NCBI GenBank assembly: GCA_026394195.1
Contig: JAPKYS010000023.1
Location: 333,339 to 397,338, forward strand
DNA: 64,000 nt
From: a bacterium
Lineage (GTDB): Bacteria; Electryoneota; B3-LCP
Direction of reading: 5' to 3'
Position 1 is the stretch's first letter. Every line of letters starts with the position of its first letter. The notes beneath the pieces were generated by a model. The model searched no databases. It saw nothing but the letters and a program-made list of their open reading frames with translations, and was not told the DNA's origin. The position numbers and the translations under genes are program-made. Positions 3,771 through 61,980 of this stretch are shown here, in pieces.

Positions 3771-3800
3771 TCGGAATTACCGTCGTAGGGAAAATACAAG

Positions 3801-4478: not shown

Positions 4479-4516
4479 AGATGCGAATCATATAAAAGGA
4501 AATTAGGAGACCCAAA

Positions 4517-14907: not shown

Positions 14908-15266
14908 GGGGACGACATGGTTTCGACGGGATAGGAGGAAGCTGGATCAGCAGGCCGGGGAATGGCGTGTACCCCGAATAAACTTCGCTAAAACATCAAA
15001 TGCCGACAATTACGGCTACGCCTTAGCTGCTTAAAAAAAAGCAGCTACGCTCCACTCAGTCTTAGCCTATCGGGTTGAGAAGTGAGCGACAATTAGATGG
15101 GCTGGCGTCGTTCTGCGCCTCGGTGAACGAAGCGAGATTCAGAGGCTGGCTGGCGCTTAGATCTGTCGATGGATGTTGGCGCCGGCGAGAATCAAACATC
15201 GACTAAGCCTGTAGCGGGTCCTTCTGCCGCTATTTCGGACGCGGGTTCGATTCCCGCCGTCTCCAC
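14908..15266 (+). ncRNA. ssrA: tmRNA (SsrA)
   Basis: The 5' GGGGACG pairs with the 3' CGTCTCC-A, giving a G3·U wobble in an Ala-acceptor-like stem. The 3' T-arm is GGTTCGATTCCCGCC. The tag ORF is ...GCC GAC AAT TAC GGC TAC GCC TTA GCT GCT TAA, i.e. (A)DNYGYALAA-stop, at 15002-15034. A TATAAT -10 lies at 14899-14904 and a terminator follows. CCA is not encoded. Confidence 0.85.
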
Positions 15267-15267
15267 A

Positions 15268-15304
15268 AAAACCACTTCCAACTTCCGGGGAGTGGTTTGT
15301 TTTT
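15268..15304 (+). terminator. Rho-independent terminator after ssrA
   Basis: AAACCACT-(14-nt loop)-AGTGGTTT followed by GTTTTT. Confidence 0.7.
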
Positions 15305-29432: not shown

Positions 29433-30767
29433 TTGCTGATCTCATTCCGGTTTCTGTCGATGAAGCGCCTTCTTCTACTAATTCTGATTTCGCTGGTTTT
29501 TTCAGCCGGTATACTTGCGGCCGATATTTCCGCCAGTGTCGTGAAGTTGATTGAAGTGGACGGGTCCATCAACCCGGCAAGTCTGCGATTTATTCAAAGA
29601 GCCATCGACCAGGCGAACGCTGAACGCGCTGAAGCTCTAATCATTCAGATGGATACACCCGGCGGCTTGATGGATTCCATGAGGGATATTGTCAAGTCGA
29701 TCTTGGGTAGTGAAATCCCCATCATCGTTTACGTTGCGCCTTCGGGTTCACGAGCTGGTTCTGCCGGGGTTTTCATCACGCTGGCTGCACACATAGCAGC
29801 TATGGCGCCTGGGACCAATATTGGAGCTGCTCACCCGGTTAATCTGGGTATGGGTGGGCAAAAGCAGGATTCATCCGGGGTCATGGAGGGCAAGGTTCTC
29901 AATGATGCAGTGGCATTTATAAGAACCATTGCGGAAAAACGCCATCGCAACGCTGACTGGGCTGAAAGCGCGGTTAGTCAATCAGCATCCATCACCGAAA
30001 CCGAAGCCCTGGAAAAAAATGTAATTGATTTGATCGCCCCATCGGTTGACAGCCTTTTAATTCGACTGGATGGACGGGAGGTTGAATTACCTCTTGGAAA
30101 CAGAACTTTGGCGTTGGTGAATTCCAGGGTTGAAAAGATTGATTTAACCTGGCGTGATAGATTGTTGGGGATTATAAGCGATCCCAATATCGCCTACGTC
30201 TTGATGTTGCTGGGTATTTATGGCATGTTCTTCGAGCTATATAATCCGGGCGCAATCGTTCCGGGAGTCGTCGGAGGCATTTGTTTGATCCTGGCTTTTT
30301 TCGCGTTTCAATCCTTACCCATCAATATCGCCGGTGTGCTGCTGATTGCTCTGGCAATCATTCTCTTCCTGTTGGAGATCAAAGTGACAAGTTACGGAAT
30401 ATTGGCAATAGGTGGAACGATTTCATTACTCCTGGGTTCGGTAATGTTGATCGATACCACGGTCCCGGAACTGAGAATATCCTGGGGCGTAATCCTACCG
30501 GGAGCCATCCTAACTGCGGGATTTTTCTTCTTCGCTATCCTGCTTTCGGCCAAAGCCCAGAAGAGCCAACCAACAACGGGCAAGGAAGGAATGATAGGGG
30601 AGGTCGGTGAGGTCATACAGACGTTGTCGCCACAGGGACGCATCAAGGTGCATGGTGAAATCTGGACAGCCCGCACCCTCACCGGGGAAATTCCGGTTGG
30701 AGCCAAAGCGATCGTTAAAAAAGTAGATAAGATGCTTCTCATCGTCGAGTCTTATACTGAGCAATAG
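29433..30767 (+). CDS. NfeD-like membrane-bound ClpP-class serine protease (stomatin operon partner)
   Basis: Signal or transmembrane start, then a ClpP-like periplasmic domain (GSRAGSAGVFITLAAHIAAMAPGTNIGAAHP), 4-5 transmembrane segments and a C-terminal OB-fold. Confidence 0.85.
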   Translation: MLISFRFLSMKRLLLLILISLVFSAGILAADISASVVKLIEVDGSINPASLRFIQRAIDQANAERAEALIIQMDTPGGLMDSMRDIVKSILGSEIPIIVYVAPSGSRAGSAGVFITLAAHIAAMAPGTNIGAAHPVNLGMGGQKQDSSGVMEGKVLNDAVAFIRTIAEKRHRNADWAESAVSQSASITETEALEKNVIDLIAPSVDSLLIRLDGREVELPLGNRTLALVNSRVEKIDLTWRDRLLGIISDPNIAYVLMLLGIYGMFFELYNPGAIVPGVVGGICLILAFFAFQSLPINIAGVLLIALAIILFLLEIKVTSYGILAIGGTISLLLGSVMLIDTTVPELRISWGVILPGAILTAGFFFFAILLSAKAQKSQPTTGKEGMIGEVGEVIQTLSPQGRIKVHGEIWTARTLTGEIPVGAKAIVKKVDKMLLIVESYTEQ

Positions 30768-30823
30768 GATGATCGGCTATATCGCTGATCACAAACCATA
30801 AACGTCAAACATAGCGTAGGGTA

Positions 30824-31168
30824 TTGGTAATGAAGAAAGAAAAAGTATGCAATCTCTGCGGTCGTAAGCTTCTTGTCACTGAATTCTATACGCAGAAAAC
30901 GTCAGTGGGAACAACCGTATACCGGTCGCGCTGCAAGCAGTGCTACAAGGCGGTGACTCGAGATTACTATTGGGTCAATCGGGACGAACTACTGAAGCGG
31001 CAAAGACAGCAGTACAAGAAGCGCCGTCCGTATCTGAAAAACTACTATCAGACTCACCGCGAGGAGAGGCTGAAGTATCAGCGGGAATGGTATCGCAAAC
31101 GCCGCATCGAGAAAACCGAGGCTTCTGCTCAGACCAAGAAAAGCTCGACTGCCGGTGGCAACCGTTAA
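30824..31168 (+). CDS. Small zinc-ribbon protein with a highly basic Lys/Arg/Tyr-rich tail
   Basis: CNLCGRK...CKQCYK is a 4-Cys ribbon. It is followed by YYWVNRDELLKRQRQQYKKRRPYLKNYYQTHREERLKYQREWYRKRRIEK. Confidence 0.5.
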   Translation: MVMKKEKVCNLCGRKLLVTEFYTQKTSVGTTVYRSRCKQCYKAVTRDYYWVNRDELLKRQRQQYKKRRPYLKNYYQTHREERLKYQREWYRKRRIEKTEASAQTKKSSTAGGNR

Positions 31169-31257
31169 ACGAGCTATTCGAAATATTGAACGACTGGACA
31201 TGGTGCGAAGAACGTAGATGAGCGCCTTATCCAGTTCTAACATCAATCGGTGCAAGT

Positions 31258-31569
31258 ATGAGCCTTGATGAGCTTGAAAAGCGAATAAACGACGTCAGTG
31301 ACCAGATCGAGAAGCGTTTCGATGAGGTTACCAAGCAAATTGAAGAGCGCTTCACTCAATCTAAATCCACCGGTCAGGAACCGCCGCGCCAAGATCTGCG
31401 TCCGAGATCTCGACAGCATACTCCTTTCTGGGGAATAGCGCTTATCGCTTTTGGCATCGTGTTGCTCAATAATCACTTCAGTTGGTTTGAATTGGACGTC
31501 CCTATTCTCCCTGCCGTACTGATCATCCTGGGCGCCTACCTGATTTTTGAGAATCACAACGCTTGCTGA
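31258..31569 (+). CDS. Small membrane protein with an N-terminal coiled coil and two C-terminal transmembrane helices
   Basis: Coiled coil LDELEKRINDVSDQIEKRFDEVTKQIEERF, then transmembrane segments (GIALIAFGIVLL, ILPAVLIILGAYLIF). Confidence 0.45.
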   Translation: MSLDELEKRINDVSDQIEKRFDEVTKQIEERFTQSKSTGQEPPRQDLRPRSRQHTPFWGIALIAFGIVLLNNHFSWFELDVPILPAVLIILGAYLIFENHNAC

Positions 31570-31628
31570 AATAAGCTGATAAGACGGTAGAATTTGTTTC
31601 AATTCGTTTCATCTAATCGGAGGTCAAC

Positions 31629-32372
31629 ATGCCTGGTATAGCCATAGTCATCGGTCTGGTCGTTCTATTGTTGTTGTCAGCCATCAAGGTACTCAACGAA
31701 TACGAACGTGCGGTCATTTTTCGTTTGGGCAGGCTGATTGGAGCAAAAGGACCGGGAATCATCTTCCTGATTCCGATAGTCGACCGTATGCGGAGAATTT
31801 CCCTTCGCACCGTAGTTACTGACATCCCCCCACAGGACGTCATCACCAAGGACAACGTATCCATAAAAGTGAATGCAGTCCTCAATTTTCGAGTCATCGA
31901 TCCGAATCGCGCAGTGGTTGAAGTTGAAAATTTTCTGTATGCCACAGGACAGCTTGCGCAAACAACACTGAGAAGCGTGCTAGGGCAATTTGAATTGGAC
32001 GATTTGCTGGCAGAACGTGAAAAGATCAATCACAAATTGCAGGAGATCGTTGACGCTCACGCCGATCCTTGGGGTGTAAAGGTGTCTCTGGTTGAAGTCA
32101 AGCACGTGGATCTGCCGGTTGAGATGCAGAGAGCCATGGCCAAGCAAGCAGAAGCGGAACGAGAGCGCCGGGCGAAAATTATCGCTGCCGAGGGTGAATA
32201 TCAGGCTTCCACTAAATTAGCTGCAGCCGCCGCCATAATCGCTGAACATCCCATCGCCCTTCAATTGCGATATCTGCAAACCCTGGCAGAGATAGCGTCC
32301 GAAAATAACTCAACCACGATTTTCCCTGTCCCGATTGACTTGATTAAAATGTTCATGGACAAGAAAGGGTGA
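31629..32372 (+). CDS. SPFH/band-7 (stomatin-like) protein
   Basis: N-terminal transmembrane segment, then an SPFH core with a C-terminal Ala/Glu-rich coiled coil. GGAGG ribosome-binding site. Confidence 0.9.
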
Positions 32373-33807: not shown

Positions 33808-34644
33808 ATGAGCACAAGAATCAATCACAATGTACTGTCGATGACGGCCCAGCGAAATATTTGGCAGACTCAGAATGATCTGGACCAGGCTGTTAATCGA
33901 CTCTCTTCTGGACTGCGTATCAACAACGCTTGGGATGATCCCGCCGGATTGGCAATTTCAGAACGCTTCAGAGCTCAAATTGCGTCCATGGACGAAGCTG
34001 AGCGGAACGCCAACTACAACATTAATATGATGCAGACCGCAGAAGGCGCTCTCTCAGTTGTAGATGAAAAGCTGATCCGTTTGAGAGCCCTAGCGATTGA
34101 GGCTTCGAACGGCGCTCTGACAGATACGGATCGCGCTGCTCTGGACGTGGAATTCCAGCAATTGGTTTCAGAAGTCAACCGTATCGCCATGGTGACGAAT
34201 TACAACGGTCTGCACCTGTTAGATGGTACGTTTTCTTCGACTGGCGTCAAGTTCCACATCGGAACTTACAATGTGCAAAATCAGGATTATTACTTCGTGA
34301 ACTTCGGATCGATGACTGCTTCGTCACTCGGGTTGATCGGAACGAACGTGACGAACACGATCAGCGCTCAGAACGCGATCGGATCGATAGACGCTGCAAT
34401 CAATGCCAAGGATACCGAGAGGACCCGGTTAGGAGGTTATGTCAACCGCCTGCAAAGCACGATCATGCAGCTTCAGGTCGCCCGGGAAAATGCGACGTCT
34501 TCCGAATCGGCGATCCGTGACGCTGACATCGCAGCCGAGATGTCCGAATTCGTCCGTGCGCAGATCTTGATGCAGTCCGGTATCTCCATGCTGGCACAAG
34601 CCAACATGATTCCGCAGATGGTAGCGAAATTGGTAGGTGGATAA
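33808..34644 (+). CDS. fliC: Flagellin (short, ~278 aa)
   Basis: The conserved N-terminus is RINHNVLSMTAQRN...LSSGLRINNAWDDPAGLAISERF. The C-terminus is ILMQSGISMLAQANMIPQMVAKLV. Confidence 0.9.
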   Translation: MSTRINHNVLSMTAQRNIWQTQNDLDQAVNRLSSGLRINNAWDDPAGLAISERFRAQIASMDEAERNANYNINMMQTAEGALSVVDEKLIRLRALAIEASNGALTDTDRAALDVEFQQLVSEVNRIAMVTNYNGLHLLDGTFSSTGVKFHIGTYNVQNQDYYFVNFGSMTASSLGLIGTNVTNTISAQNAIGSIDAAINAKDTERTRLGGYVNRLQSTIMQLQVARENATSSESAIRDADIAAEMSEFVRAQILMQSGISMLAQANMIPQMVAKLVGG

Positions 34645-34673: not shown

Positions 34674-34708
34674 AAACAACGCCGTCCAATTGGGCGGCGT
34701 TGTTTTAT
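34674..34708. terminator. Bidirectional hairpin terminator between convergent genes
   Basis: AACAACGCCGTCC-aatt-GGGCGGCGTTGTT, flanked by T-runs on one strand and A-runs on the other. Confidence 0.65.
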
Positions 34709-36081
34709 TATCCTAAATCATTATAAGCGCGCAATCGAAATTTTACTCCGACCCGTTCGGCGATGTTTTTTATGGCCTCTGCATCGACTGCCGGATATGA
34801 GACAGCAGTGATTACAACTTCAGGAATCACTCCGACGCAAGCACGGGTAAAATCGATCACACCCTGAAACGAACTTTCGCCAAATTCACTTTGCATGATT
34901 TTTTGATAGCGTTCCGAAGTCGGTTCATTCAAACTGATGGAAATCGAATCAATCAGACCTGAAAGTTCCGGGACAATATTTCTGCGATGGATCAGGTTCC
35001 CATGACCATTGGTGTTGATACGGACTTTCTGAACCCCTTTGGATTTCAGCCAGCGGGCAACCTGCAATAACACGTCCAGCCGTATCGTAGGCTCTCCGAA
35101 ACCGCAGAACACAACTTCCTCGTATTTCAGTGGATCTCCTATCGCCTGGATCACTTGCTCAGAAGTCGGTTCTGCCTCATCATCCATCCCGAGATTGTAC
35201 CCTTTAACCACTGGATTGGTCGCTCGTGGACAAAAACGACAGGTGTTGGTACAGCGGGAGGTCAGGGCAATGTAGAGGGAATTGCGAATGGGATATACAA
35301 TCGACTTGGCTGGTGGTTCGCCAACACCGAACAACCGGTAGCTGTTTGCCGTGGTTATTCTTGCTATATCAGAGAGGCTCAGACCTTTGGTTCTGGCGAT
35401 TTGGTCTGCGATGAGAGGTATGTAAGCCGGCTCATTTCGCTTCCCACGATGGGGTTGAGGCGTCAGAAAGGGACAATCGGTCTCCAACAGGATTCTCTCG
35501 ATTGGCGCCGCGGCGACGACTGACGTCAACGCGCTGTTTTTATAGGTGACGTTCCCCGTAAAGGAGACGAAAAAACCAAGGTTCAATACTTGCTTCAGTT
35601 CTGTGATCCCGCCGGAAAAACAGTGGAATACGCCGGTCAGCTTGTCTGAGGTAAAATTCCTTAGAATATCGAAAGTATCACTAAATGCTTCGCGGCAGTG
35701 GATGACTACCGGCAAGGTCAATTCACTCGCTATCCCAAGCATCCGCGTGAATATCTCACGCTGCTTTTCCTGCGGAGAACGATTCCGGAAGTAGTCCAGA
35801 CCTATTTCACCGATCGCCACGACCTTCGGGTGATCTGCCTGTCGACGAATTAGCGCTTCCAGGTTATGGTCAGCTTTCTCAGAATCGTGCGGATGCCAAC
35901 CTACTGCGGCGTATACTTCATCATGATCAGCAGCGATCTGAAGAGCATTTTCGTTGGTGACGTCATCGATGCCGATCGTGATGATTTTCTCAACCCCGGC
36001 ATGATGAGCATTCGCGAGCACTGAGCTCAGATGAGGACGTAACTCTGGGAAGTCCAGATGTGCGTGCGTGTCTATGTACAT
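34708..36081 (-). CDS. TatD-family metal-dependent hydrolase fused to a C-terminal TatD-associated radical-SAM domain
   Basis: The N-terminus MYIDTHAHLDF is the TatD signature, with metal-ligand His/Asp/Glu spacing. The C-terminus SRCTNTCRFCPRA is a radical-SAM CxxxCxxC motif of the TatD-linked rSAM family. Confidence 0.8.
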   Translation of the reverse strand: MYIDTHAHLDFPELRPHLSSVLANAHHAGVEKIITIGIDDVTNENALQIAADHDEVYAAVGWHPHDSEKADHNLEALIRRQADHPKVVAIGEIGLDYFRNRSPQEKQREIFTRMLGIASELTLPVVIHCREAFSDTFDILRNFTSDKLTGVFHCFSGGITELKQVLNLGFFVSFTGNVTYKNSALTSVVAAAPIERILLETDCPFLTPQPHRGKRNEPAYIPLIADQIARTKGLSLSDIARITTANSYRLFGVGEPPAKSIVYPIRNSLYIALTSRCTNTCRFCPRATNPVVKGYNLGMDDEAEPTSEQVIQAIGDPLKYEEVVFCGFGEPTIRLDVLLQVARWLKSKGVQKVRINTNGHGNLIHRRNIVPELSGLIDSISISLNEPTSERYQKIMQSEFGESSFQGVIDFTRACVGVIPEVVITAVSYPAVDAEAIKNIAERVGVKFRLRAYNDLG

Positions 36082-36219: not shown

Positions 36220-37896
36220 TTATTGGGCGGCTTTTCGCGCTGATAGTCCGGCAGAACAAACGACCAGTGCAAAGATGGGAAGCAGCGGCATGTGATAGCG
36301 ACCCTCGGCGGTCAGTGGAAGATATACCAGAGTAAAGTACAGAATCGTCGCCAAAATGATCCAAGTGCGTTCACTGAGACCCTCCTTTTTAAGAACAATC
36401 CAAATCGAAAGTAGAAAAGACAAGCCCAATGCATAATAATATCCCTCAGTTACCAGGATCATCGCCATAATTACGGCAGGTGCGAATTGGGCGTAGCTCT
36501 CACCTAAACTGTAGGTCACCGCCTTGCTGTCTTTGTAATATAAGTGAACCAATTTCTTCAGTGCAAGAATGACCGAGTGACCTGGGTGAGATATAATATA
36601 ATTCGTTCCCAGCTTCATAAGAAAGCGGTCTTTTTGCGCTTCATCGAGGGAATTATAATAAGATAATTGGTCCCGGGGGATGAACACGTCGGGTGCCATC
36701 ACACCACCCGAAGCGTGAGGGTTATTCCCCATCGCCAGGTTATAGCCGCCATAATTCGCAGAGAGAACGAAGGTATGAAATATTTGGTAATTTCTTATTT
36801 GCCAGGGCAACATAATCATTTCACCTACGACGAAGATGAAAACGAGTTGCGCAAGAGAGCGTTTAAATTGTCCACTTTTCAAAAAGCGGTATACTATGAG
36901 TACCACTGGGAATAATAACGCCGTGGGGCGCAGCATATTGGTAAAACCGAAAAAGACGCCCAACAGCAGAGTATTTGGGAAAGTCTGCTTACGTGTCGCT
37001 ATGAAGATCAAGAATAGGATTAAAAAGGAAAATGGTATATCCGCCAATGGAAGGAGAGTATAGAATATCTGCGATGGAATCAACGCTGTCAGCAGCGTAG
37101 CATTTCTTGCGGTTTTTTCATCGAAAAACTCCAGCCCCAATCGATAAACCAGGTAACTGATTCCACAAAAGAAGCAGATGTTGAGCAATTGAGCGATGAA
37201 AACGTGAATCCCGAAGATTCGGTAGACAAGAGAGAGGAAGAAGGGGTAACCTACCGGCCAAAACGCGGTCGGTTGGCTATAGGGTGTCACGACGCCGAGT
37301 CCATTGGTTATATTTTCAGCTTGACGAAGATACCACACTGAATCGCCGCCGGGAGTGTATTCCACTGAGCTGATGTAAATCAAACTTAAGATGAACTGAG
37401 TGCCGATAACAATAAGTAGAAATTTACCGGTTGGCCATTGGTGTAGCTTTATAACTCCCCGGACAATGAGATGAAATAACCAAGCCAGCACCAAGAGGGT
37501 GATCCCAGCAATCAGTAATCCAGTTTTTAAGGAACTAAAAGCATAAACAGCCAGAGGGTCGAAAGCGCCATCGGAAGTTAGCACGCCCTGAAGGGACTCT
37601 GGATTGAAGTTTATGAACAATAACGCCAGGGAAGCGAGTAAAAATCCGCCTCCAAACAGCATAAGGATGGCAGCAAACCGTTTCATGAGTTTAATTGCGT
37701 GAGGTAATCCTGGAATTGAAATCAAGGCAACCTTCAGTCGGTAAAACTGATTTGCTCCTTGACTGTAGAAAATATAAATAACACTTCCATTAAAAGCAAA
37801 TGATTTTCCAGAAATTTGAGCAGCAGATAGCTGAGAATAAAGTTGACTTTGCTGCGAAAATTTGCTAATTTTAATACAAGATTGAAGCACAACCAT
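36220..37896 (-). CDS. ArnT/PMT-like (GT39/GT83) polytopic membrane glycosyltransferase
   Basis: About 12 transmembrane segments. The N-terminal transmembrane-loop pattern is typical of undecaprenyl/dolichyl-phosphate-sugar transferases. Confidence 0.65.
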   Translation of the reverse strand: MVVLQSCIKISKFSQQSQLYSQLSAAQISGKSFAFNGSVIYIFYSQGANQFYRLKVALISIPGLPHAIKLMKRFAAILMLFGGGFLLASLALLFINFNPESLQGVLTSDGAFDPLAVYAFSSLKTGLLIAGITLLVLAWLFHLIVRGVIKLHQWPTGKFLLIVIGTQFILSLIYISSVEYTPGGDSVWYLRQAENITNGLGVVTPYSQPTAFWPVGYPFFLSLVYRIFGIHVFIAQLLNICFFCGISYLVYRLGLEFFDEKTARNATLLTALIPSQIFYTLLPLADIPFSFLILFLIFIATRKQTFPNTLLLGVFFGFTNMLRPTALLFPVVLIVYRFLKSGQFKRSLAQLVFIFVVGEMIMLPWQIRNYQIFHTFVLSANYGGYNLAMGNNPHASGGVMAPDVFIPRDQLSYYNSLDEAQKDRFLMKLGTNYIISHPGHSVILALKKLVHLYYKDSKAVTYSLGESYAQFAPAVIMAMILVTEGYYYALGLSFLLSIWIVLKKEGLSERTWIILATILYFTLVYLPLTAEGRYHMPLLPIFALVVCSAGLSARKAAQ

Positions 37897-37907
37897 AAGG
37901 AGTTGCT

Positions 37908-38219
37908 ATGCCCAGTGAATCCATGCGCACGTTAGAAGCGCTGGGGATGATCGAAACCCGCGGTCTCGTCGGGGCAATTGAAGCTGCTGACGCCATGGTG
38001 AAAGCCGCCAAAGTGCAATTGGTCGGCAAGGAAAAGATCGGTGGTGGATATGTCACTGTATTCGTCCGAGGTGACGTGGGGGCGGTAAAAGCCGCTACGG
38101 ATGCAGGCGCAACCGCCGCTGAAAAAGTCGGCGAGTTGGTGTCGGTGCACGTTATTCCGCGTCCACATCAGGACGTGGAATTGATTCTGCCGCATCGAGA
38201 CAACTCGAATATCGAATAA
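37908..38219 (+). CDS. Bacterial microcompartment shell protein, BMC-H (PduA/EutM-like)
   Basis: [57 protein letters not shown]...[10 protein letters not shown] is the canonical Pfam00936 BMC domain. Confidence 0.95.
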
Positions 38220-38235
38220 TTGGCGTGAGTCGAAT

Positions 38236-38724
38236 ATGATTGCAGATTCCAGGGATAGACCATCCCCAGACGGACGCGCGCTCGGATTGATTGAAACCAA
38301 GGGATTGATCGGAGCCATTGAAGCAGCAGACGCCATGGTCAAGTCCGCCAAGGTGCAGCTTCTTGAAACCGAGCTGAGTACCGGCGCGATGGTTACAGTC
38401 AAAGTCGTCGGGGAAACCGGAGCTGTACGCTCTGCGGTCGATGCCGGCGCCAAAGCAGCCGAGCGTGTCGGCCAATTGGTTTCCGCGCACATCATACCAA
38501 GACCTCATGATGACACGGAAGATATTTTGGTCTACCCACAACGCCAAGCTCCCAAGACATCGAAAGAAACTGGCGCTGTGACGATCATCAACTACGACGA
38601 ACTGACTGTAAAAAAACTACGGGCGCTGGCGAGGCAGACCCCAAATTACCCGCTTTCCGGACGTGATATCTCCAAGGCAGGAAAAGCGCAATTACTGAAG
38701 CTATTTAAAAAGCTCACGACCTGA
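38236..38724 (+). CDS. BMC-H shell protein paralog with a ~60-aa C-terminal extension
   Basis: [32 protein letters not shown]...VSAHIIPRPH, followed by a basic helical tail ending KLRALARQ...LLKLFKKLTT. Confidence 0.9.
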   Translation: MIADSRDRPSPDGRALGLIETKGLIGAIEAADAMVKSAKVQLLETELSTGAMVTVKVVGETGAVRSAVDAGAKAAERVGQLVSAHIIPRPHDDTEDILVYPQRQAPKTSKETGAVTIINYDELTVKKLRALARQTPNYPLSGRDISKAGKAQLLKLFKKLTT

Positions 38725-38762
38725 TTGAATAAACCCACCGTAAAGAACCTCGACTCAATCCG

Positions 38763-39143
38763 ATGTTAAGCCGCATCACCGCATTCCTGCGTCCCTATAA
38801 GCGATACATCATCCTATGGCTCATTATTATCGCCATGGTGCTGCTTGGGGTAGTGCTGGGAGTCGATAAAAAGGTCATTGGTGTTGTCGTCGCTCTTTTC
38901 GGAATCATAACCCAGGCATTTATCGGCTTGCTGGCGCTGGTGGGTGTGGTCCCAATTTTAGGTCCTCTCATCGTTAAAATTATCAGTCTGCCGCTTTTCT
39001 GGCTTTTAAATGGAATAGGTTACGTTCTCTCCGTTTTCGCCATCAAACAAGGCTACACCAAAGAAGTTCTGAATTATCGCGTACTTACGGTCGTCTTCCT
39101 GATCGGTGTAGTCATCGGGTTCATCATCGGTCAAATCATCTAA
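38763..39143 (+). CDS. Small polytopic membrane protein (4 transmembrane segments), hypothetical
   Basis: Four hydrophobic helices. No recognisable motif. Confidence 0.45.
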   Translation: MLSRITAFLRPYKRYIILWLIIIAMVLLGVVLGVDKKVIGVVVALFGIITQAFIGLLALVGVVPILGPLIVKIISLPLFWLLNGIGYVLSVFAIKQGYTKEVLNYRVLTVVFLIGVVIGFIIGQII

Positions 39144-39259
39144 GAGTCCTACCTAATTCCTCTTTAGGAAAAAAAGTCTGCGCTTGCATTTCCACAAAAA
39201 AAGCATTATCTTAATGGATGTGATGAATACGACACCCTTCCAAGTGGAAAGTCAGGCTT

Positions 39260-41647
39260 ATGAATTCCAGATTTAAGATGGTGTTAAAGCTGATCGCTGT
39301 ACTCAGTGGTCTGATGGCTATTGCTACAATAAACCGTGCAGCTCGCGGACATGTAGGATTAAGTCCCGCTGAACCCATTTCTGTCACCAATGGCAATTCC
39401 TATGCGGATAATGACAGCATCATTCTCTGGGAAACCTTTGAGTCAGGTATCGGTGGTTGGACGACTTCGGATTTGACCAACCCGGGTCCGTCCTGGCATC
39501 ATGACACGTATAACGGTTTCAGCGGTCCATCCTGGTGGTCAGGGAAAACGAGTCTGATGGGCTATGAAAACAATTGGCTGCAGTATCTCGTCAGTCCCAC
39601 CATCAATTTATCAAGCGCCACATATCCCGTCCTGAATTGTATGGTCTACTGGGCGGTCGAGCCGCCTTCAACCTTTGGGCAATATGATGGTTGGGATGGA
39701 TGCAATGTCTGGGTCTCAGTGACCAATGGAAACACCTGGCAGGTGTTGACCCCTACCTCGCCTGCCTACAACTGTCAACATTTGTACAGTTTTGGATGGC
39801 GTTGGAATATGGGAATCAATATCCCCGGTTGGGCGGGTTTTTCCGGGGGATGGACTCCTGCGAGCTTTGATCTTTCCAACTATACTGTTGCTAATGTGAT
39901 GATTCGGTTTGCCTTTGCCTCAGATGAAGCCAATTGTACAGTTGGTAATCCCTCTTATCTGGGTTTCTTTGTCGACAATATCGAAGTGCGAGAAGGCACC
40001 AGTGTCTATCTCTCCAATACCGCCAGCGGGACTCCACTTCCAGCGGAATTCACCACCTCAACAGGAACTCCATCGGGGAACTACTGGGTTTATAACGAAG
40101 ATCGCTACCACAGCCCCAATCATAGCTGGAACTGCGACGATCTCTATTTCCTGTCTGACGCCCTAACCTCGCCAATGATCAGCATCCCCGGCAATATGTC
40201 TACTCGCATGCGCTACTGGGTTTACTGCGACATGCCTGACTTTGATGGCGATAGTGACAATTACCTGGATGATTATTACTACATCGAGGTTGCGCCTGCC
40301 GGCAGCGCATTTTGGACCCCCATCGTGTACGATTGGGCACACAACGGATCACAATTGCAGTGGGTGGAACGGTTCAACGGCTATTGGGATGACCTGCCGA
40401 CGCCCGAAATCAATCTGACGCCCTGGGCAGGACAAAACGTGCAGATCCGATTCCGGGTTGTCACCGACGGCAATAACGACGGTGGGGAAGGGGAGGGCTT
40501 GTACATCGATGACGTCCTGCTGCTCTCCAGCAGCCTTCCCAATAACGACGTCGGAGCTACCCAGATGATCATTCCGTTCCCTACCTATCTGGGCAGAAAC
40601 AATATTCCCAGCAGCGTGGATTTGATCAACTACGGCATACTCAATCAATCATTGGTGCCCGCTTTTTGGACCTACGGTGGGCAACCCACCGCTCTGATAC
40701 CCTGGACTCAAATTAACGCCGCCGATACGGTCACCCGAACATTTACCTGGACACCGCCAGCGCTGGGCTTTTACGATTTTTCCGCCTACACGACGCTAAC
40801 TGCCGACGAAAACAGATCCAATGATACCTGTTCGGCCGGATTGGTCGAAGTTACACCGGCAGGAACCTTTGAATTAGGGTATGATCACAGGCAGATTACC
40901 TACCTGCCTGATTTCTACAACTTCAACTTCAGCCAGGGCGCCGGTGCCCTGGTCTTGTTCACTCCGGCAGAGGATGGCATTCCCGGGGACTTATATGGCG
41001 ACTACCTCAAAGCCATGTTCTATTCTACTGGAACCATTCGCATGCACATTTTGGCGTCTGCTGCTGGAGGCGTACCCGGAATCGAAGTGTTCCAAAGCGA
41101 CATTGTGGTGGATACCAACCATGTTTACCCCAATTGGGCTGAATTTGACTTAGGGAGTGTCCAATACCTTCAAGGCGGGCATCCGGATTTCTGGGTGTGG
41201 CTGGAAGTCACTTCCAATGACAGCAAACCCCACTTAACCGGACATTTGATCGATTCCTTCAGCGAAGGTCACTTCTTCACCTACAATGGTACGACGGCAA
41301 ACAGCACCATTGTCAACTTCAACATCCGTGCAGTGTTGACTGGAACGGTGGGGGTCAAGCAAGAGGCGCCCAAATTCATTCCACAACAGACCGCTCTCCT
41401 ACCGAATTTTCCCAATCCTTTCAATTCCAGCACCACGATCGGCTATCAACTCGCCACAGCCGGGCAAGTTACTCTTTCAATATTCGATTTATCTGGCAGA
41501 AGAATTCAGCTATTGGATCAAGGATTGGTTAAAGCAGGACAGCATTCTGTACGATATAACGCCGGTTACATGGCATCCGGCATCTACATCTGCAAACTGG
41601 AAACCGAAACAGTTACACTGCAGAAAAAGATCGTATTGCTCAAGTAA
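39260..41647 (+). CDS. Large secreted Trp/Asn-rich β-sandwich protein with a T9SS (Por) C-terminal sorting domain
   Basis: Signal peptide present. The C-terminal ~80 aa (FPNPFNSSTTIGYQLA...VTLSIFDLSGRRI...GIYICKLETETVTLQKKIVLLK) match the TIGR04183-type C-terminal domain. N-terminal MAM/'choice-of-anchor'-like Trp patterns. Confidence 0.8.
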   Translation: MNSRFKMVLKLIAVLSGLMAIATINRAARGHVGLSPAEPISVTNGNSYADNDSIILWETFESGIGGWTTSDLTNPGPSWHHDTYNGFSGPSWWSGKTSLMGYENNWLQYLVSPTINLSSATYPVLNCMVYWAVEPPSTFGQYDGWDGCNVWVSVTNGNTWQVLTPTSPAYNCQHLYSFGWRWNMGINIPGWAGFSGGWTPASFDLSNYTVANVMIRFAFASDEANCTVGNPSYLGFFVDNIEVREGTSVYLSNTASGTPLPAEFTTSTGTPSGNYWVYNEDRYHSPNHSWNCDDLYFLSDALTSPMISIPGNMSTRMRYWVYCDMPDFDGDSDNYLDDYYYIEVAPAGSAFWTPIVYDWAHNGSQLQWVERFNGYWDDLPTPEINLTPWAGQNVQIRFRVVTDGNNDGGEGEGLYIDDVLLLSSSLPNNDVGATQMIIPFPTYLGRNNIPSSVDLINYGILNQSLVPAFWTYGGQPTALIPWTQINAADTVTRTFTWTPPALGFYDFSAYTTLTADENRSNDTCSAGLVEVTPAGTFELGYDHRQITYLPDFYNFNFSQGAGALVLFTPAEDGIPGDLYGDYLKAMFYSTGTIRMHILASAAGGVPGIEVFQSDIVVDTNHVYPNWAEFDLGSVQYLQGGHPDFWVWLEVTSNDSKPHLTGHLIDSFSEGHFFTYNGTTANSTIVNFNIRAVLTGTVGVKQEAPKFIPQQTALLPNFPNPFNSSTTIGYQLATAGQVTLSIFDLSGRRIQLLDQGLVKAGQHSVRYNAGYMASGIYICKLETETVTLQKKIVLLK

Positions 41648-41814: not shown

Positions 41815-42594
41815 ATGAAATGCCCAAATTGTAAAGGTGAAATTCCCAGAAAAGAACGCAAGCGTCAAACCTGTCCGGCCTGCGGGGAACCGCTGCCGGT
41901 TGCTCGCCCCATCCTATTAGAATGGTCGGGGAGGGCTTCGCGCTTCACTGACGAACGCGGTTTCTTCTTCTGGCTCATCATCTTCGTACTTTTTACGTTT
42001 TTACTGGCAGCGCTGGAACATCTTTTCGGCAAGGGAGATCTGGCTCGCCTTTTGGACCAGCACAAGTTCATCAGCGTGCTCATGTTTGTTTATATCGCAG
42101 CCCACTTGAAACTCTGGCGCAATATCAACACCATAATGCGCCCGGGCTACCCAGCACCCTATTGGGTTGATCGCTTGATTATCAAGAATTTCAAGCGAGG
42201 GACCAATTACATGGTCGTTCTTGGCATCATCGTAAGCCTTATTATCCTCGGACCATTCAACATCTTTACGCTAATGCCCGCTTACATATTGATTATATCT
42301 TTTTTTACAGCCTTCTTCTGGAGCGCTCAATCATTCAGGATGGACGATAAAGAATTCCTCGACGGGAAGGTTCAATCTTACTTTGAGTACCTCGGTGTGA
42401 GGAGATTACGACAATGGCGCAAGGCGGGAGGAGCCTATTTGATCGCTCTGGTTGTATCGGCAGGGATCTTCTACGGTTTATCTCACGTTCCGGGTCTGTG
42501 GTGGCTGATTAAAGAGAATCCAACCCTTAATGAAATCATTGATCTCTTCAACGCACTGTTCAGTTGGGTACCGATGGTTATACCCGAAAAATAG
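41815..42594 (+). CDS. Zinc-ribbon-containing polytopic membrane protein, hypothetical
   Basis: The N-terminus is CPNCKGE...CPACGE, followed by about 5 transmembrane segments. Confidence 0.5.
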   Translation: MKCPNCKGEIPRKERKRQTCPACGEPLPVARPILLEWSGRASRFTDERGFFFWLIIFVLFTFLLAALEHLFGKGDLARLLDQHKFISVLMFVYIAAHLKLWRNINTIMRPGYPAPYWVDRLIIKNFKRGTNYMVVLGIIVSLIILGPFNIFTLMPAYILIISFFTAFFWSAQSFRMDDKEFLDGKVQSYFEYLGVRRLRQWRKAGGAYLIALVVSAGIFYGLSHVPGLWWLIKENPTLNEIIDLFNALFSWVPMVIPEK

Positions 42595-44477: not shown

Positions 44478-45509
44478 CTATTTGATTTCTATCTGTCGCA
44501 GGTAATTCGCAGCATCTTCGGGTGGCGTTGGATTGATGTAGAAGCCTGTCCCCCACTCGAATCCGGCAGTTCGCACCAGACGGGGAATGATCTCGAAATG
44601 CCAGTGAAAATCGTTTGGTAAAGTCGACCAATAGCTCGGGCGTCTGGCTTTGGATTTCGTATTCGGCGCGGTATGCAGCATGAAATTATAGGGCGGATCG
44701 TTCAGCGCCAGATTCAGGCGTGTCAGAACTTCCTTTAAACATTTGGAGAGCGCCGCCAAGCCATCGTCTGACAGTACGCCAAAATCGTGGGAATGCTCCA
44801 GTGGAGCAATGAAAACCTCAAAGGGAAAACGCGAGGCGAACGGCGCGATAGCAACCATTCCATCAACTTGTGCAATGATGCGGTCGCCATCTTCCATATC
44901 TTGCTTGATGATGTCGCAGAAAAGACATCTCTCCTTGAGGTCGTAATAATTTCGAGCTGCGTCGAGCTCCATGGCTACGGTACGCGGTGTGACTGGCGTA
45001 GCGATGATCTGTGTATGCGGATGAGATAAAGATGCGCCGGCCGTCACACCCTGATTCTTAAAAATAAGCACATAACGGAAGCGGAGATCATTCATCAGAT
45101 CCTTGAGCCGCAATTGGTAAACCTTCATGATCTTCTGGAATTGATCGAGAGGCTGATTCGCCAGGTTAATTTCGTGATGTGGTGATTCGATGATCACCTC
45201 GTGCGCTCCGATCCCGTTCATCTTATCATAAATGCCTTTTCCGGATCGATCCAGGTCGCCTTCTATGCGGAGCGCCGGGAATTTGTTGGCTACGACTCTG
45301 ACGTCCCACCCGGGAGTGTTGGCAGAAGTCCCCTGGCGCCGGAAGGCAGTAATTTCAGGAGGCGTCTTCTCTTCATTCCCTTCGCAAAATGGGCAGAACC
45401 CCCCCGCTTGTTCCGGTTCCAATTTGGCAAAATCAGATGGGCGTCTCCCCCGTTCCGTAGCTATGATCACCCAGCGTCTTTGAATGGGATCGTGGCGTAA
45501 CTCAGGCAT
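44478..45509 (-). CDS. GalT-like hexose-1-phosphate nucleotidyltransferase (HIT superfamily)
   Basis: CPFCEGNE is the zinc motif and HPHTQIIA is the H-x-H-x-Q active-site motif. Confidence 0.75.
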   Translation of the reverse strand: MPELRHDPIQRRWVIIATERGRRPSDFAKLEPEQAGGFCPFCEGNEEKTPPEITAFRRQGTSANTPGWDVRVVANKFPALRIEGDLDRSGKGIYDKMNGIGAHEVIIESPHHEINLANQPLDQFQKIMKVYQLRLKDLMNDLRFRYVLIFKNQGVTAGASLSHPHTQIIATPVTPRTVAMELDAARNYYDLKERCLFCDIIKQDMEDGDRIIAQVDGMVAIAPFASRFPFEVFIAPLEHSHDFGVLSDDGLAALSKCLKEVLTRLNLALNDPPYNFMLHTAPNTKSKARRPSYWSTLPNDFHWHFEIIPRLVRTAGFEWGTGFYINPTPPEDAANYLRQIEIK

Positions 45510-45553
45510 TTATCCTCCAATTATTCTCACGGTGTCGATGATTATCAGGTCTG

Positions 45554-47281
45554 TTAATCTGTGGGGAGGTCTCTTCCCGCCCACAGGGATGGTTTGAGTT
45601 CAGCAAAAAGATTATCTCGTGCGCTGACTGTCTGGAAATATTCCCAATCTCCAGCGCTCAGTTCAGAGCCGGAAGTCATTTTCTCGAGCATGACATAAAG
45701 TTTCTCAAAGTCCAGGTGATGTTTGACCAACCGAGTTTCAGCGTAGTCGCGCGCGCTGAAGGTGGAGATCAGGAATTGCCAATCTGAACTTTCCAATAGC
45801 AGCAACTCACGCCCTAACTGCTTTAGAACCTCCTGCACTCGACTATCGGCGTGATTTTCCCAATTCTTCACTGCCTCCAGCATTTTTTGTTCAGCGGGAT
45901 AGATCAATTCCCAGCTCCAGCGCGTGTCTTCGTTGAACCAGATATGATGAAAGCCGCCCTCTCCCCAAGACCCTTCGGGCAAAGATACCACCCGGTGAGT
46001 TTTTACTTGATCCAGATATTCACTTCCTGTCATCAACTGCAATTCCGGATCCTGACCAATCCATTTTAGAACCTTGTAGATCCAGCGGGGTCCTTCGAAC
46101 CACCAGTGGCCGAAGAGTTCAGTATCGAATGGAGCACAGACAATCGGTAGACCTTCAGCCTCTTTGCCCTCATGACTGAGTATTTGGCGGACCATCTCTT
46201 TGAAATGTCCGGCGTTTTCATCGATGCGGGCGGAAACAACGTCGGGATTATAGATCTCCTTTTCACCCAGACCAACTTTGGCTGAGGTCACTCGCCAGTA
46301 GCGATGTCCGCCCGGATGATGCTTCTTGTGAAAATCAAGATAGCAGCCATCGCCGGGGTAGCCGTGTTCACCGGACCAAACCTGCAATCCGGTGCGGGGG
46401 TCTCGGATGAAGGCGCACACTCGTCCTAAAAAATCACCACGGGATCGAACCAGATAGCTCTGATAGGGACTGCGTTTGAATTCACCTTCAACTTCGGTGT
46501 AACCCTTGGAAAACTCGTCCCAGTATTTCCTCAAAGCCTCATAGCGTTCCAGATAGACCCCCATCGCCTGTCCACCTTCGATCAGATGCGAATCGACGTA
46601 GAAGAAGCGCAGGTCGTGACGATCCAGGAATTCTTCCAGACCACGCCTCAGCCGGCGATTTTGCCCATTCAGAGGATTGCTCCATTCGCGGAAGGGGCGA
46701 TAGGCAGACTCCGGCAGCCAGATACCCGCTGGTTTTTTCCCGAAATGCTTCTGATAGTTTTCGACAGCCAACTTGATCTGAGCATCGACACAGGCGTCTT
46801 CGCCCAGTAAGGGCAGATAGCCATGCGTCGCCGCGCAGGTTATGATTTCAATCTGACCTTGATCCTGCAATTTCCGGAATCCACTGAGGATGTCTTTGTG
46901 GTAGGTCTGGTGAAAAGCCTGCGCCATCGTTCCATAAAATACCTCCCAATCTTCTGCCAGGCGCACCATGTCCGGCATTCCTGCTTTGGTAAACCCAATT
47001 TTATCGATGCGTGCAGCCTCTGATTTCATATGCAGATAGGCCGAGAAATCTTCTTTGAATACCGGATCCGCCAACTGTTCGCAGAGCACCGGGGAGAGAC
47101 CGATGGTGACCTTCGGCGCAATTCCCTCTTCGGATAATTTCTCAAAAGCATTCAGCAAGGGAAGATAAGTTTCTGCAGCCGCCTCGTTTAACCAATCCAT
47201 CCCGTGTGGCCATTTGCCGTGAGAAATTACGTATGGTAGATGGGAATGCAAAACCAGGCTGAAAGCTCCTAAAGTTGACAT
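45554..47281 (-). CDS. GH57-family 1,4-α-glucan branching enzyme-like
   Basis: The N-terminal signature is LVLHSHLPYV. Length is ~575 aa, as in GH57 GlgB. Confidence 0.75.
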   Translation of the reverse strand: MSTLGAFSLVLHSHLPYVISHGKWPHGMDWLNEAAAETYLPLLNAFEKLSEEGIAPKVTIGLSPVLCEQLADPVFKEDFSAYLHMKSEAARIDKIGFTKAGMPDMVRLAEDWEVFYGTMAQAFHQTYHKDILSGFRKLQDQGQIEIITCAATHGYLPLLGEDACVDAQIKLAVENYQKHFGKKPAGIWLPESAYRPFREWSNPLNGQNRRLRRGLEEFLDRHDLRFFYVDSHLIEGGQAMGVYLERYEALRKYWDEFSKGYTEVEGEFKRSPYQSYLVRSRGDFLGRVCAFIRDPRTGLQVWSGEHGYPGDGCYLDFHKKHHPGGHRYWRVTSAKVGLGEKEIYNPDVVSARIDENAGHFKEMVRQILSHEGKEAEGLPIVCAPFDTELFGHWWFEGPRWIYKVLKWIGQDPELQLMTGSEYLDQVKTHRVVSLPEGSWGEGGFHHIWFNEDTRWSWELIYPAEQKMLEAVKNWENHADSRVQEVLKQLGRELLLLESSDWQFLISTFSARDYAETRLVKHHLDFEKLYVMLEKMTSGSELSAGDWEYFQTVSARDNLFAELKPSLWAGRDLPTD

Positions 47282-47296
47282 GGTTTTTACCTCTAT

Positions 47297-49438
47297 TTAG
47301 ATTATCCAATTTTCTGAAAGGTATTCAGGTGTTGGTTGGGGACATTTATAGAAACCCTCCCGCGGCCATTTCTCCAGCTCCAAATTGCCCTGAAGAATTC
47401 TCACTGAGAAAGGCACACTATCCTCATCATGGGGTAAGGTATTGAACGGAATTTTCAGTTCTAATACGTGATCGAAGGCGGCTTGAATATCACCTGCTGA
47501 TTTGCCCTCTTTTGCGTCGATTTTTACTTCTCCGCTGTTGAAGCTGGTCAATTCGATCGCATGGATCAAGCCGGCACCCTTGTTGAATTGCACCTCAACG
47601 CGAAGGTCAACCATGGTGCGGAAAGCGTTGGTGGGATCCAGACGCAGACAGAAGTGGCTTTCAGTGAATCCAAAAAACAGTCTGTCAATTACGCTACTGA
47701 CCAAATTCATGGCTCCGGAAAAGTCATCAGAATCTATTTCCTGAGCGCCAATCCATTCGTAAAAAAAGGTTTCTTTGCCGTCGATCACTGGATCAATGGT
47801 AAAAAGCGCTGAATCGCTGGTTCTGCTCCCCCCCACTCTGATAGGCTCCAATAGGTTGGCAGGTGGTTCAACGCCAAATTCTCTGTATATCTGTATTAAA
47901 TTCGAACGGAAGAGATAATCAAATTCCTCCTCGAACACCGAGTGATTGGGTTCACCGTACCACCAAAACCAATCGCTGCCTTCTGCGATGTACAGGTGCT
48001 CCCTGGCGTCTTCCAGCACTTTAGTATCCGTAGCAACCGCAGTCTGACGATCGAGAAAAGCAGCTGTTTCTCCGAGTCTATCCCAAGCGAGGTTTTTTAC
48101 AGGATCCCCGATCCAGATGCGAAACGACCCGTTGATCCAGGATGCTGGGAAGATTGGGGGCAATATCTTCTTTGCAGGATGCTTCTCGGCAAATTCGCTA
48201 AAGGTGCACATCTGCAGGAGCGAGTGATTCGTCAATTGGGTATACAACTCTTCGAAGAATTTTTTTCCCCCGTCCGGGAAATACTCCCAGGCATTCTCCC
48301 CGTCGAGTATGATCGCGACAATGCTTTCTTCAGGTGTTGGTCGTGATTTTGCGATATTCAGCAGATTTCCCAGAAGATCATCCGCAGATCTTTTCGGGGC
48401 GTTGCGGGCGTAACGAAATCCTACGGCATCGGATAGGTCATGATCCCGGAAAAACAGGGTTAGTCCGTCTATAGAGGCAAGGTAAGATGAATAAATCGAA
48501 TCCTCGCGCCTGACGTCATTCAAAGTTGCAAGCAGAACGTTCTCATCTGTAGCGATCCACTTGAACCCCGTGTCACCTGCAAGTTCGCAAACGGCAGGAC
48601 TTACTGACCCTTCGCTGGGCCATAATCCCAGGGGAGCTCTCCCAAAATGTTGTTTGGCAGTTTCCAGCCCCCGCTGCAATTGTTCCCGGGCGTCCTGGGG
48701 GCGCAAAAACGAGTGTCCGGGCATCGGGTCACCCGGTTGGGAAATGCGGGCGCTGCGGTTATCGACTAACAGCGGCAGAATAGGATGATAGAATGGTGTG
48801 GTCGAAATTTCAATGTTACCTTGATCCCATGCGGCGCGATAGTTTGGAATGATGTCCTTTAAGACCTGCAATTGCAGATCAAGAAGCTGGCGTTTGTCCT
48901 CTTCGATAAAGTTTCTGTCCTTGCGCTTCAACTCACCGATGATCGGATATCGATCTTCAGCGCTCCAGCCGATCCAGGCCAGGTTGAACCAAACCTGCAA
49001 ATCCCGAAAATCCTGAACAGTAAACCTCTTCGATAGATCCTCAATATCCGATTCAACCATTTTCCTTCCCCGTTTGTTGAGCAGATCGCGATAGCGGGGG
49101 TGCACCATCACCATGTTCGCCCAACTTGCAGAAAAGAAGTATTTCAACATGATCTTCTTTTCCGCGGGTTCGAGATCTTCAGCAGGTTTCAACGAAATGT
49201 CATAATAGGTGTCGCTTTCCCTGCCGGAACTTAGATCATCCAACTGTGCCAGCAATGCAGGCACAAAGTTGAAAGTAACTCTGACGTCGCCAAATTTTTG
49301 TATTGCCGCCAGCATATCGGAGTACCCCTTAAGTCCGTGCAGGCGAACCCAGGGTAGAATGTACTTACCGTTTTTAGGGTCACGGTAGTACGGTTGGTGC
49401 ATATGCCACAAAAATGCGACGTTCAGTTTACCGGACAT
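47297..49438 (-). CDS. GH57-family α-glucan hydrolase/transferase (amylase/4-α-glucanotransferase-like)
   Basis: The N-terminal signature is FLWHMHQPYYRD. 713 aa. Confidence 0.75.
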   Translation of the reverse strand: MSGKLNVAFLWHMHQPYYRDPKNGKYILPWVRLHGLKGYSDMLAAIQKFGDVRVTFNFVPALLAQLDDLSSGRESDTYYDISLKPAEDLEPAEKKIMLKYFFSASWANMVMVHPRYRDLLNKRGRKMVESDIEDLSKRFTVQDFRDLQVWFNLAWIGWSAEDRYPIIGELKRKDRNFIEEDKRQLLDLQLQVLKDIIPNYRAAWDQGNIEISTTPFYHPILPLLVDNRSARISQPGDPMPGHSFLRPQDAREQLQRGLETAKQHFGRAPLGLWPSEGSVSPAVCELAGDTGFKWIATDENVLLATLNDVRREDSIYSSYLASIDGLTLFFRDHDLSDAVGFRYARNAPKRSADDLLGNLLNIAKSRPTPEESIVAIILDGENAWEYFPDGGKKFFEELYTQLTNHSLLQMCTFSEFAEKHPAKKILPPIFPASWINGSFRIWIGDPVKNLAWDRLGETAAFLDRQTAVATDTKVLEDAREHLYIAEGSDWFWWYGEPNHSVFEEEFDYLFRSNLIQIYREFGVEPPANLLEPIRVGGSRTSDSALFTIDPVIDGKETFFYEWIGAQEIDSDDFSGAMNLVSSVIDRLFFGFTESHFCLRLDPTNAFRTMVDLRVEVQFNKGAGLIHAIELTSFNSGEVKIDAKEGKSAGDIQAAFDHVLELKIPFNTLPHDEDSVPFSVRILQGNLELEKWPREGFYKCPQPTPEYLSENWII

Positions 49439-61970: not shown

Positions 61971-61980
61971 AAGGGTTGCG

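Follow-up and report, generated by a model that had tools for sequence, protein, structure and literature searches.

The 64-kb window analysed here (positions 333,339 to 397,338 of contig JAPKYS010000023.1) contained two adjacent genes, named H1 and H2, that code for bacterial microcompartment (BMC) shell proteins of the BMC-H type, the second one with a basic C-terminal tail. This pair probably represents the hexamer module of a scattered microcompartment of the FRAG type, closest to FRAG3, of which the pentamers and the cargo would be encoded elsewhere and in which the tail of H2 would serve as an outward nucleic-acid tether. The pair looks orphaned because microcompartments of the FRAG type scatter their shell genes around the chromosome. 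The assignment to FRAG3 is based on the pair itself, on the probable affinity of the host, and on the presence of a DeoC–BMC-P operon in relatives, all of which fit.

Both genes are genuine BMC-H shell-protein genes, far above chance expectation. H1 (37908-38219, +; 103 amino acids, aa) matched the Pfam family PF00936 with an E-value of 4.7e-30 and 103.8 bits, and H2 (38236-38724, +; 162 aa), which starts 16 bp past the H1 stop codon, did so with an E-value of 2e-25 and 89 bits, the gathering score being 24.5. These matches to the hidden Markov model (HMM) bear out the sequence-only reading, an earlier annotation made from the nucleotide sequence without database searches, which had called two BMC-H genes. 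In each protein, positions 1-75 of the model were matched in a single, non-permuted stretch. H1 is a canonical, 'basal' shell hexamer protein of the EutM/PduA type. It passed the NCBIfam EutM equivalog cut-off (136.6 versus 133 bits) and, when aligned to PduA, had its edge lysine (DAMVK), PRPH motif, and canonical pore loop (KIGGGY) intact. Similarly, H2 kept the edge lysine and PRPH, with a divergent pore loop (ELSTGAM versus KIGSGL), and its BMC domain (38278-38532, +; residues 15-99) was modelled by AlphaFold2 with predicted local distance difference test (pLDDT) values of 87-98. A profile of the H2 homologues aligned best to a Haliangium BMC-H tandem fusion and to EutM and PduA structures. 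In addition, both motifs of the inter-hexamer interface (D-A-M-V-K, with its edge lysine, and P-R-P-H) occur in the two proteins and did not vary in the homologue alignment. A Shine-Dalgarno-like AAGGAG (37897-37902, +), read from the sequence, occurs 5 nucleotides 5' of the H1 ATG. It sits within the divergent intergenic region that H1 has in common with a PMT_2 glycosyltransferase gene, the end of which was placed 221 bp from H1 by the gene caller on a 28.6-kb Logan contig (run SRR20698647, contig 311756) to which the window is identical. A promoter and terminator scan of positions 37400-39500 gave counts that were not above those of shuffled sequence.

Classification against the published BMC locus types placed the pair in the FRAG class. 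In this class, the shell genes are distributed over up to six genomic sites, mostly remote from enzymes (Sutter et al. 2021, PMC8217296, Supplementary Data 2); a BMC-P triplet is present, encapsulation-peptide matches are not, and the hosts are Ignavibacteriae and related phyla as well as many candidate phyla (Sutter et al. 2021, PMC8217296). FRAG3, reported from Calditrichaeota, KSB1, and LCP-89, comprises two BMC-H proteins, one standard and one with a C-terminal extension of about 50 aa, and a DeoC/LacD-family aldolase encoded beside BMC-P (Sutter et al. 2021, Nat Commun 12:3809, PMC8217296). The window resembles FRAG3 in its two BMC-H proteins, i.e. the canonical H1 of 103 aa and the tailed H2 of 162 aa (extension of about 63 aa), and in its dispersal, as the shell genes are remote from enzymes and the rest of the window yielded no further compartment gene. 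It differs in that DeoC next to BMC-P was seen in its relatives (loci L003 and L017/L018, see below) and not in the window itself, in that H2 is longer than the 151-153 aa found in the loci showing the DeoC operon, and in that a lineage-specific gene for a protein with four transmembrane segments (4-TM) was added after H2 in the clade of the window. The arrangement is no novelty, dispersal being the defining habit of the catalogued FRAG types (PMC8217296). The sequence-only reading had left a choice between a satellite locus of a compartment encoded elsewhere and a minimal shell-protein system of unknown function in a lineage where such compartments are little described. The former is favoured by the match to FRAG3 and by the linkage to BMC-P in relatives, whereas the latter, a shell-only system, is without positive support. 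Microcompartment production in LCP-89 is reportedly also named in the title of a 2019 paper by Youssef and colleagues.

The genomic context of the pair was compared in 37 related loci (numbered with an L; the window is L001), obtained by exact-protein look-ups, a genome scan, and a metagenome scan, the open reading frames (ORFs) of which were classified by BLASTP and Pfam. The genome scan returned 12 loci with the pattern [GND]FPL[SK]GR[DE]IS, which excludes the NYPLSGRDIS variant of the window. The order H1 followed by the tailed H2 was retained in most loci. In four clades other than that of the window, the pair occurred near BMC-P genes, at a distance of 0-7 kb (L003, L013, L014, L016, L017, L034, L035, and L037). 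In the KSB1-like loci (L003, L017/L018), an operon coding for a PGM_PMM-family mutase, BMC-P, DeoC, and a pyrimidine-nucleoside phosphorylase (L003, 2532-6330, +; L017, 8638-12646, +) was located 5.5 kb upstream of the pair, which was itself embedded in an ispE–spoVG–prs–rplY–pth housekeeping cluster. In the Calditrichaeota CLD4-like loci (L016, L034, L035, and L037), BMC-P came directly 3' of the tailed H2 and was followed in L016, L034, and L035 by genes for a PduS homologue, a PduT-like tandem BMC-T, and an ACT-domain protein; L037, a contig of 1.7 kb that is too short for more, showed the tailed H2 and BMC-P only. The ACT-domain protein, about 190 aa long with the ACT domain at its C-terminus (L016, 13074-13646, +), is encoded just 3' of PduS–PduT and is followed in L016 by a DUF711 protein. 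It resembles the ACT protein that is the only non-shell marker listed for FRAG4 (Sutter et al. 2021, PMC8217296). In two Bacteroidota metagenome-assembled genomes (MAGs; L013 and L014), two BMC-P genes were found 7 kb away, amid sigma-70, GGDEF, tsf, rpsB, and rpsI genes. Three unrelated genes split H1 and H2 in the FCB-group contig L020, and the Planctomycetota locus L011 contained the tailed H2, H1, and a 206-aa protein weakly similar to a BMC domain. A clade with an H2 of 149 aa (L006, L008, L015, L024-L026, L028, L032, and L033) displayed the pair only.

The window itself belongs to an LCP-89-like clade with an H2 of 162-168 aa (L001, L002, L004, L005, L009, L019, L021, L023, L027, L030, and L007). 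On contigs of sufficient length, the neighbourhood in this clade consisted of genes for PMT_2, the 4-TM protein, a cargo protein of the type IX secretion system (T9SS), a 259-aa protein, Pyr_redox, thiamine-BP, GalT, and GH57. LCP-89 B3_LCP (L002; GCA_005223185.1) shares with the window the order PMT_2, H1, tailed H2, 4-TM, and T9SS cargo, and most of the gene order of the window was also common to nine further contigs. Identity between the window and LCP-89 B3_LCP amounted to 94% for H1, 56% for H2, and 54% for the T9SS cargo, and MAGs labelled as Zixibacteriota and as Calditrichaeota were just as close to the window. Overall, identity to the window copy was 80-94% for H1, 40-63% for H2, 58-65% for the 4-TM protein, 52-61% for the T9SS cargo, and 36-48% for the glycosyltransferase. 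The contrast between H1 and the flanking proteins (36-65%) indicates that H1 is under strong purifying selection. In L002, genes for methylmalonyl-CoA-mutase-like and B12-binding-domain proteins (3700-5715, -), immediately upstream of H1 and divergent from it, replace the intergenic region of the window; they were not seen in the other loci.

The tail of H2 is a flexibly tethered appendage dedicated to BMC-H proteins, as the matches of a tail-only HMM carry it at the C-terminus, mostly bear a BMC domain, and have linkers of variable length. The basic helical tail noted in the sequence-only reading was found again: the stretch past the BMC domain comprises about 63-65 residues with an isoelectric point (pI) of 10.0, has 13 lysines and arginines versus six aspartates and glutamates, and was modelled with three helices. 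It starts with a linker (38533-38595, +; residues 100-120) that is unconserved in the alignment and probably disordered (pLDDT 49-62), and ends with a conserved basic three-helix domain (38596-38721, +; residues 121-162) with a predicted SAP/LEM/Rho-N-like, helix-extended-helix (HeH) fold. In the full-length AlphaFold2 monomer of H2, the BMC domain (residues 14-99) was confident and residues 121-161 formed three helices with pLDDT values of 92-94; modelled in isolation, the tail gave three helices too (pLDDT 81.7). More than 100 H2 homologues of 148-170 aa were retrieved, covering 88-99% of the length of H2, the tail included, and originating, where a source was named, from LCP-89, Zixibacteria, KSB1, and 'FCB group' MAGs. 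Their alignment fell into three parts, namely the BMC domain, the linker without conservation, and a segment of some 40 conserved residues, the invariant positions of which are V, R, A, R, G, R, I, S, and L. The consensus of this segment is LxxxxV+ELRxLARxxxxFPLxGR[DE]ISxAxKxxLL, and the family motif can be written as L-x-x-x-x-V-x-x-L-R-x-x-A-R ... G-R-[DE]-I-S-x-A-x-K-x-x-L. Across 102 homologues, the tail domain had a median net charge of +5 and a pI of 10.3.

A search of 1.84 billion representative proteins with the tail-only HMM yielded 742 matches at E ≤ 1e-3 (counted as clusters at 50% identity), 394 of them at E ≤ 1e-10, with the domain always at the extreme C-terminus. A BMC domain was recognisable in 109 of the 149 best matches, and most of the others were short fragments. 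The linker in this wider family measures 16-255 residues (median of about 110) and abounds in E, K, S, and D, the linker of the window H2 (about 21 aa) being among the shortest. Among the matches were BMC-H proteins of 200-380 aa that carry the same terminal domain after long linkers. These sequences suggest that the extensions of FRAG3 and of FRAG1, a type known from Ignavibacteria, Kryptonia, and Bacteroidetes (Sutter et al. 2021, PMC8217296), are the same domain on linkers of different length.

Concerning the nature of this domain, the tail alone gave no match to a Pfam family at E-values up to 10 and none to NCBIfam; a profile search of the PDB returned insignificant matches only, and Foldseek found no match to the tail model in the PDB. 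In a fold comparison, an unrelated TAF1 segment was the top match (score of 5.1), together with the SAP domain of Hcc-1 (4.6; 44 residues aligned), the Rho N-terminal domain (4.3), the emerin LEM domain (4.1; 26% identity), and the THO1 SAP domain (3.1). As modelled, the tail looks like a small folded basic SAP/HeH-like domain, DNA-binding-type in appearance. It differs from the SAP, LEM, and Rho N domains in that it has no sequence-profile match to any Pfam family and in that its second helix is broken by the conserved G-R-[DE]-I-S insert. A reading of the tail as a membrane-associated amphipathic helix was rejected in view of the compact three-helix fold and the conserved G-R-[DE]-I-S and V-x-x-L-R-x-x-A-R motifs. 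The earlier proposal of a cargo- or membrane-docking element found no support either, the tail being a folded basic SAP/LEM/Rho-N-like mini-domain on a linker and the 4-TM gene being found beside the pair in one clade only. The closest functional precedents are EutK and PduK, which, like H2, consist of a single BMC domain with a C-terminal appendage. This appendage is a positively charged, putatively nucleotide-binding domain in EutK and a disordered extension in PduK, and both proteins have been linked to the way in which Eut and Pdu compartments are distributed within the cell (PMC12487888). Since the NCBIfam EutK model aligned to the BMC domain of H2 only and not to its tail, the latter is, at the sequence level, analogous and not homologous to the C-terminal domain of EutK.

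The following mechanism may be proposed for a FRAG3-like compartment in this organism. H1 would be the major, canonical facet hexamer. H2 would be a minor specialised tile, because its pore is altered and a tail is present, with the tiling motifs kept and co-assembly with H1 in the facets possible. By analogy with the relatives, the vertices would be formed by a BMC-P triplet encoded elsewhere, and we infer that other chromosomal sites of the genome encode the pentamers, the cargo, and BMC-T/PduS partners, if any. The cargo would most plausibly be a DeoC pathway, as genes for a nucleoside phosphorylase, a PGM/PMM-family mutase, and DeoC were recurrently linked in relatives. In this pathway, a (deoxy)nucleoside would be converted by the phosphorylase into (deoxy)ribose-1-phosphate, by the phosphosugar mutase into (deoxy)ribose-5-phosphate, and by DeoC into acetaldehyde and glyceraldehyde-3-phosphate, the acetaldehyde released being sequestered. 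The mutase may act as a phosphopentomutase, thereby completing the route from deoxynucleoside to acetaldehyde. As a whole, the assignment of deoxynucleosides and DeoC as substrate and enzyme is tentative. The relatives of the window resemble SPU metabolosomes in having a DeoC-family aldolase (PF01791) as candidate signature enzyme, but RpiB, aldehyde dehydrogenase, and a consolidated locus were not seen near the pair in any of the loci examined. As to the tail, the termini of BMC-H proteins are on the concave face, which faces the cytosol in solved shells (HO, GRM2, and carboxysome). Therefore, the tail of H2 would project outward, its basic SAP-like domain reaching into the cytosol on an acidic flexible linker. 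As a tether, it would hold the organelles to a polyanion, DNA of the nucleoid or RNA being the likeliest one, and would serve to position or partition them. An outward basic domain and the precedent of EutK and PduK in compartment distribution favour such a nucleoid or RNA tether, although this role in positioning or inheritance can be advanced with less than even confidence, the sole indication of the ligand of the tail being its conserved net charge of about +5.

In the window, Pfam annotation covered nearly every ORF of at least 100 aa up to position 60362, and four ORFs at 60405-63994 were covered by tblastn alone. No aldehyde dehydrogenase, PTAC, glycyl-radical enzyme, DeoC, PduS, BMC-P, or further BMC domain was found by Pfam among the ORFs up to position 60362. 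Similarly, tblastn revealed no additional BMC domain (H1 and H2 as queries) and no BMC-P (EutN, CcmL, and PduN as queries) in the whole window. This agrees with the earlier observation that aldehyde dehydrogenase, PTAC, glycyl-radical enzyme, and BMC-P genes are lacking nearby. The flanking genes proved to be those described previously. They code for a PMT_2/ArnT-like GT-C glycosyltransferase on the opposite strand (36220-37896, -; Pfam), a basic membrane protein of 126 aa with about four transmembrane segments according to its hydropathy and without Pfam or NCBIfam match (the 4-TM protein; 38763-39143, +), and a T9SS cargo protein with InhA-like MAM and Por_Secre_tail domains (39260-41647, +). 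As no plus-strand terminator-like site was found between H2 and the 4-TM gene, which starts 38 bp past H2, the latter may be co-transcribed with the pair. Nevertheless, the 4-TM protein is unlikely to be a microcompartment component and is probably not part of the system. As candidate parts of the system, both this protein and the 259-aa protein with zinc-ribbon and transmembrane signals were rejected, since only a single clade has them alongside the pair.

Several points weigh against a scattered FRAG3-like compartment with a tethering tail. The 64-kb window is without BMC-P, BMC-T, or candidate cargo; protein searches with the BMC-P and DeoC of L003 surfaced no LCP-89 proteins and returned KSB1, Calditrichaeota, and Kryptonia-type relatives; and the pentamers of the LCP-89-like clade are inferred from the catalogue statement of Sutter et al. 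(2021). Furthermore, both the nucleic-acid binding of the tail and its outward orientation are predicted, and encapsulation peptides, which could account for the recruitment of cargo, were not found in FRAG genomes (Sutter et al. 2021, PMC8217296). In line with the first of these points, the hexamers of the LCP-89-like clade might stand alone, forming pentamer-less sheets, tubes, or a cytoplasmic scaffold, with the tail anchoring the lattice to DNA or the membrane. BMC-H proteins alone are able to form sheets and nanotubes in vitro and upon over-expression, neither BMC-P nor cargo genes occur within 25-38 kb of the pair in the window or within 10 kb in any of the approximately 11 syntenic loci, and the 149-aa clade also shows the pair only. 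This explanation is nevertheless unlikely, as an LCP-89 genome has been catalogued as FRAG3 with a BMC-P triplet (PMC8217296), the orthologous pairs in four other clades adjoin BMC-P, PduS, PduT, or DeoC genes, and gene dispersal is itself a hallmark of the FRAG class.

Two other explanations keep the compartment and assign a different partner to the tail. The lack of recognisable encapsulation peptides in FRAG genomes (PMC8217296) would find an answer if the tail faced the lumen and replaced them as a cargo recruiter, with an acidic patch on DeoC or on a different enzyme as its binding site. The high conservation of the tail domain and its near exclusiveness to BMC-H proteins are compatible with such a role, and LEM, one of its fold matches, binds protein rather than DNA. 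However, the canonical position of BMC-H C-termini on the cytosol-facing concave face, acidic linkers of up to 255 residues, which suit an outward tether better than a packed lumen, and the action of EutK and PduK on positioning (PMC12487888) make a lumenal role quite improbable. If the tail docked the organelle, or the shell protein itself, to the inner membrane via the 4-TM protein, this would account for the position of the 4-TM gene immediately past H2, with no plus-strand terminator-like site in between, and for its retention (58-65% identity) by 10 members of the clade (window, L002, L004, L005, L009, L019, L021, L023, L027, and L030). Yet, this gene was absent from L007 within the same clade and from every other clade among the loci compared, i.e. 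also where the tail persists (KSB1-like, CLD4-like, 149-aa, Bacteroidota, and Planctomycetota loci), and the tail domain, helical and basic, is soluble and not an amphipathic membrane helix. Moreover, the co-location reflects lineage synteny, because the entire neighbourhood (glycosyltransferase, T9SS cargo, and 259-aa protein) is equally syntenic in the LCP-89-like clade. Membrane docking is very improbable indeed. The scattered FRAG3-like compartment with an outward tether is the preferred reading.

The remaining genes of the window have housekeeping functions and encode SelA, an NfeD/SPFH operon, flagellin, a TatD–radical-SAM fusion, GH57 enzymes, GalT, sensor kinases, NadC, UvrD, Lon, ribonucleotide reductase, a NuoE/F-like module, and MoxR/DUF58. 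The 259-aa protein (41815-42594, +) belongs to no curated family; its N-terminus gives a weak zinc-ribbon signal, and hydrophobic segments are present. It is encoded at the same site, 3' of the T9SS cargo gene, in L002, L004, L007, L019, L023, and L030 (61-64% identity). A complete TatD-family hydrolase domain (E-value of 6.6e-82) is fused to a C-terminal radical-SAM domain (E-value of 5e-12) in an ORF of 457 aa (34708-36081, -), and the same fusion occurs in L004 (1333-2706). An apparent membrane-scaffold operon (29433-32372, +) contains genes for NfeD (444 aa) and an SPFH/Band-7 protein, as well as two small unannotated ORFs (114 and 103 aa), for the second of which the gene caller listed a weak LiaF-TM match. 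A module for alpha-glucan metabolism (44478-49438, -), syntenic in L004 and L019, codes for a GalT-like nucleotidyl transferase, a GH57 branching enzyme with a BE_C domain, and a second GH57 protein (713 aa). The sole RNA gene of the window according to ARAGORN and an Rfam gathering-score scan is a tmRNA gene (14908-15268, +; RF00023, 191 bits) with the tag peptide ADNYGYALAA. Finally, the presence of genes for the selenocysteine synthase SelA (27950-29359, +), flagellin (33808-34644, +), and T9SS cargo proteins (39260-41647 and 56740-59388) suggests a flagellated, selenoprotein-using bacterium of the FCB superphylum.

The locus adds nothing categorically new, as the FRAG arrangement has already been catalogued, albeit functionally uncharacterised. 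Among bacteria of the FCB superphylum and of candidate phyla, FRAG microcompartments are widespread. To this, the present comparison adds that a tailed hexamer is repeatedly linked to BMC-P within an operon for nucleoside phosphorylase, phosphosugar mutase, and DeoC, which points to deoxyribose-phosphate or acetaldehyde chemistry. It also adds that a single conserved basic SAP-like appendage, on a very variable linker and in hundreds of BMC-H clusters, is a candidate module for organelle positioning or nucleic-acid binding. A more far-reaching idea, which must be considered somewhat unlikely, is that the combination of BMC-H, acidic linker, and basic SAP/HeH-like domain would be a built-in tether of the microcompartment to the nucleoid or to RNA, allowing positioning and inheritance of FRAG organelles without McdAB or a ParA-type system. 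Such an organelle might possibly scavenge deoxynucleosides or DNA while joined to its polymer substrate, and in the LCP-89-like clade it may do so without pentamers. For genome annotation, the pair in this window implies that an isolated BMC-H pair in these phyla should be taken neither as the absence of a compartment nor as a new minimal system.

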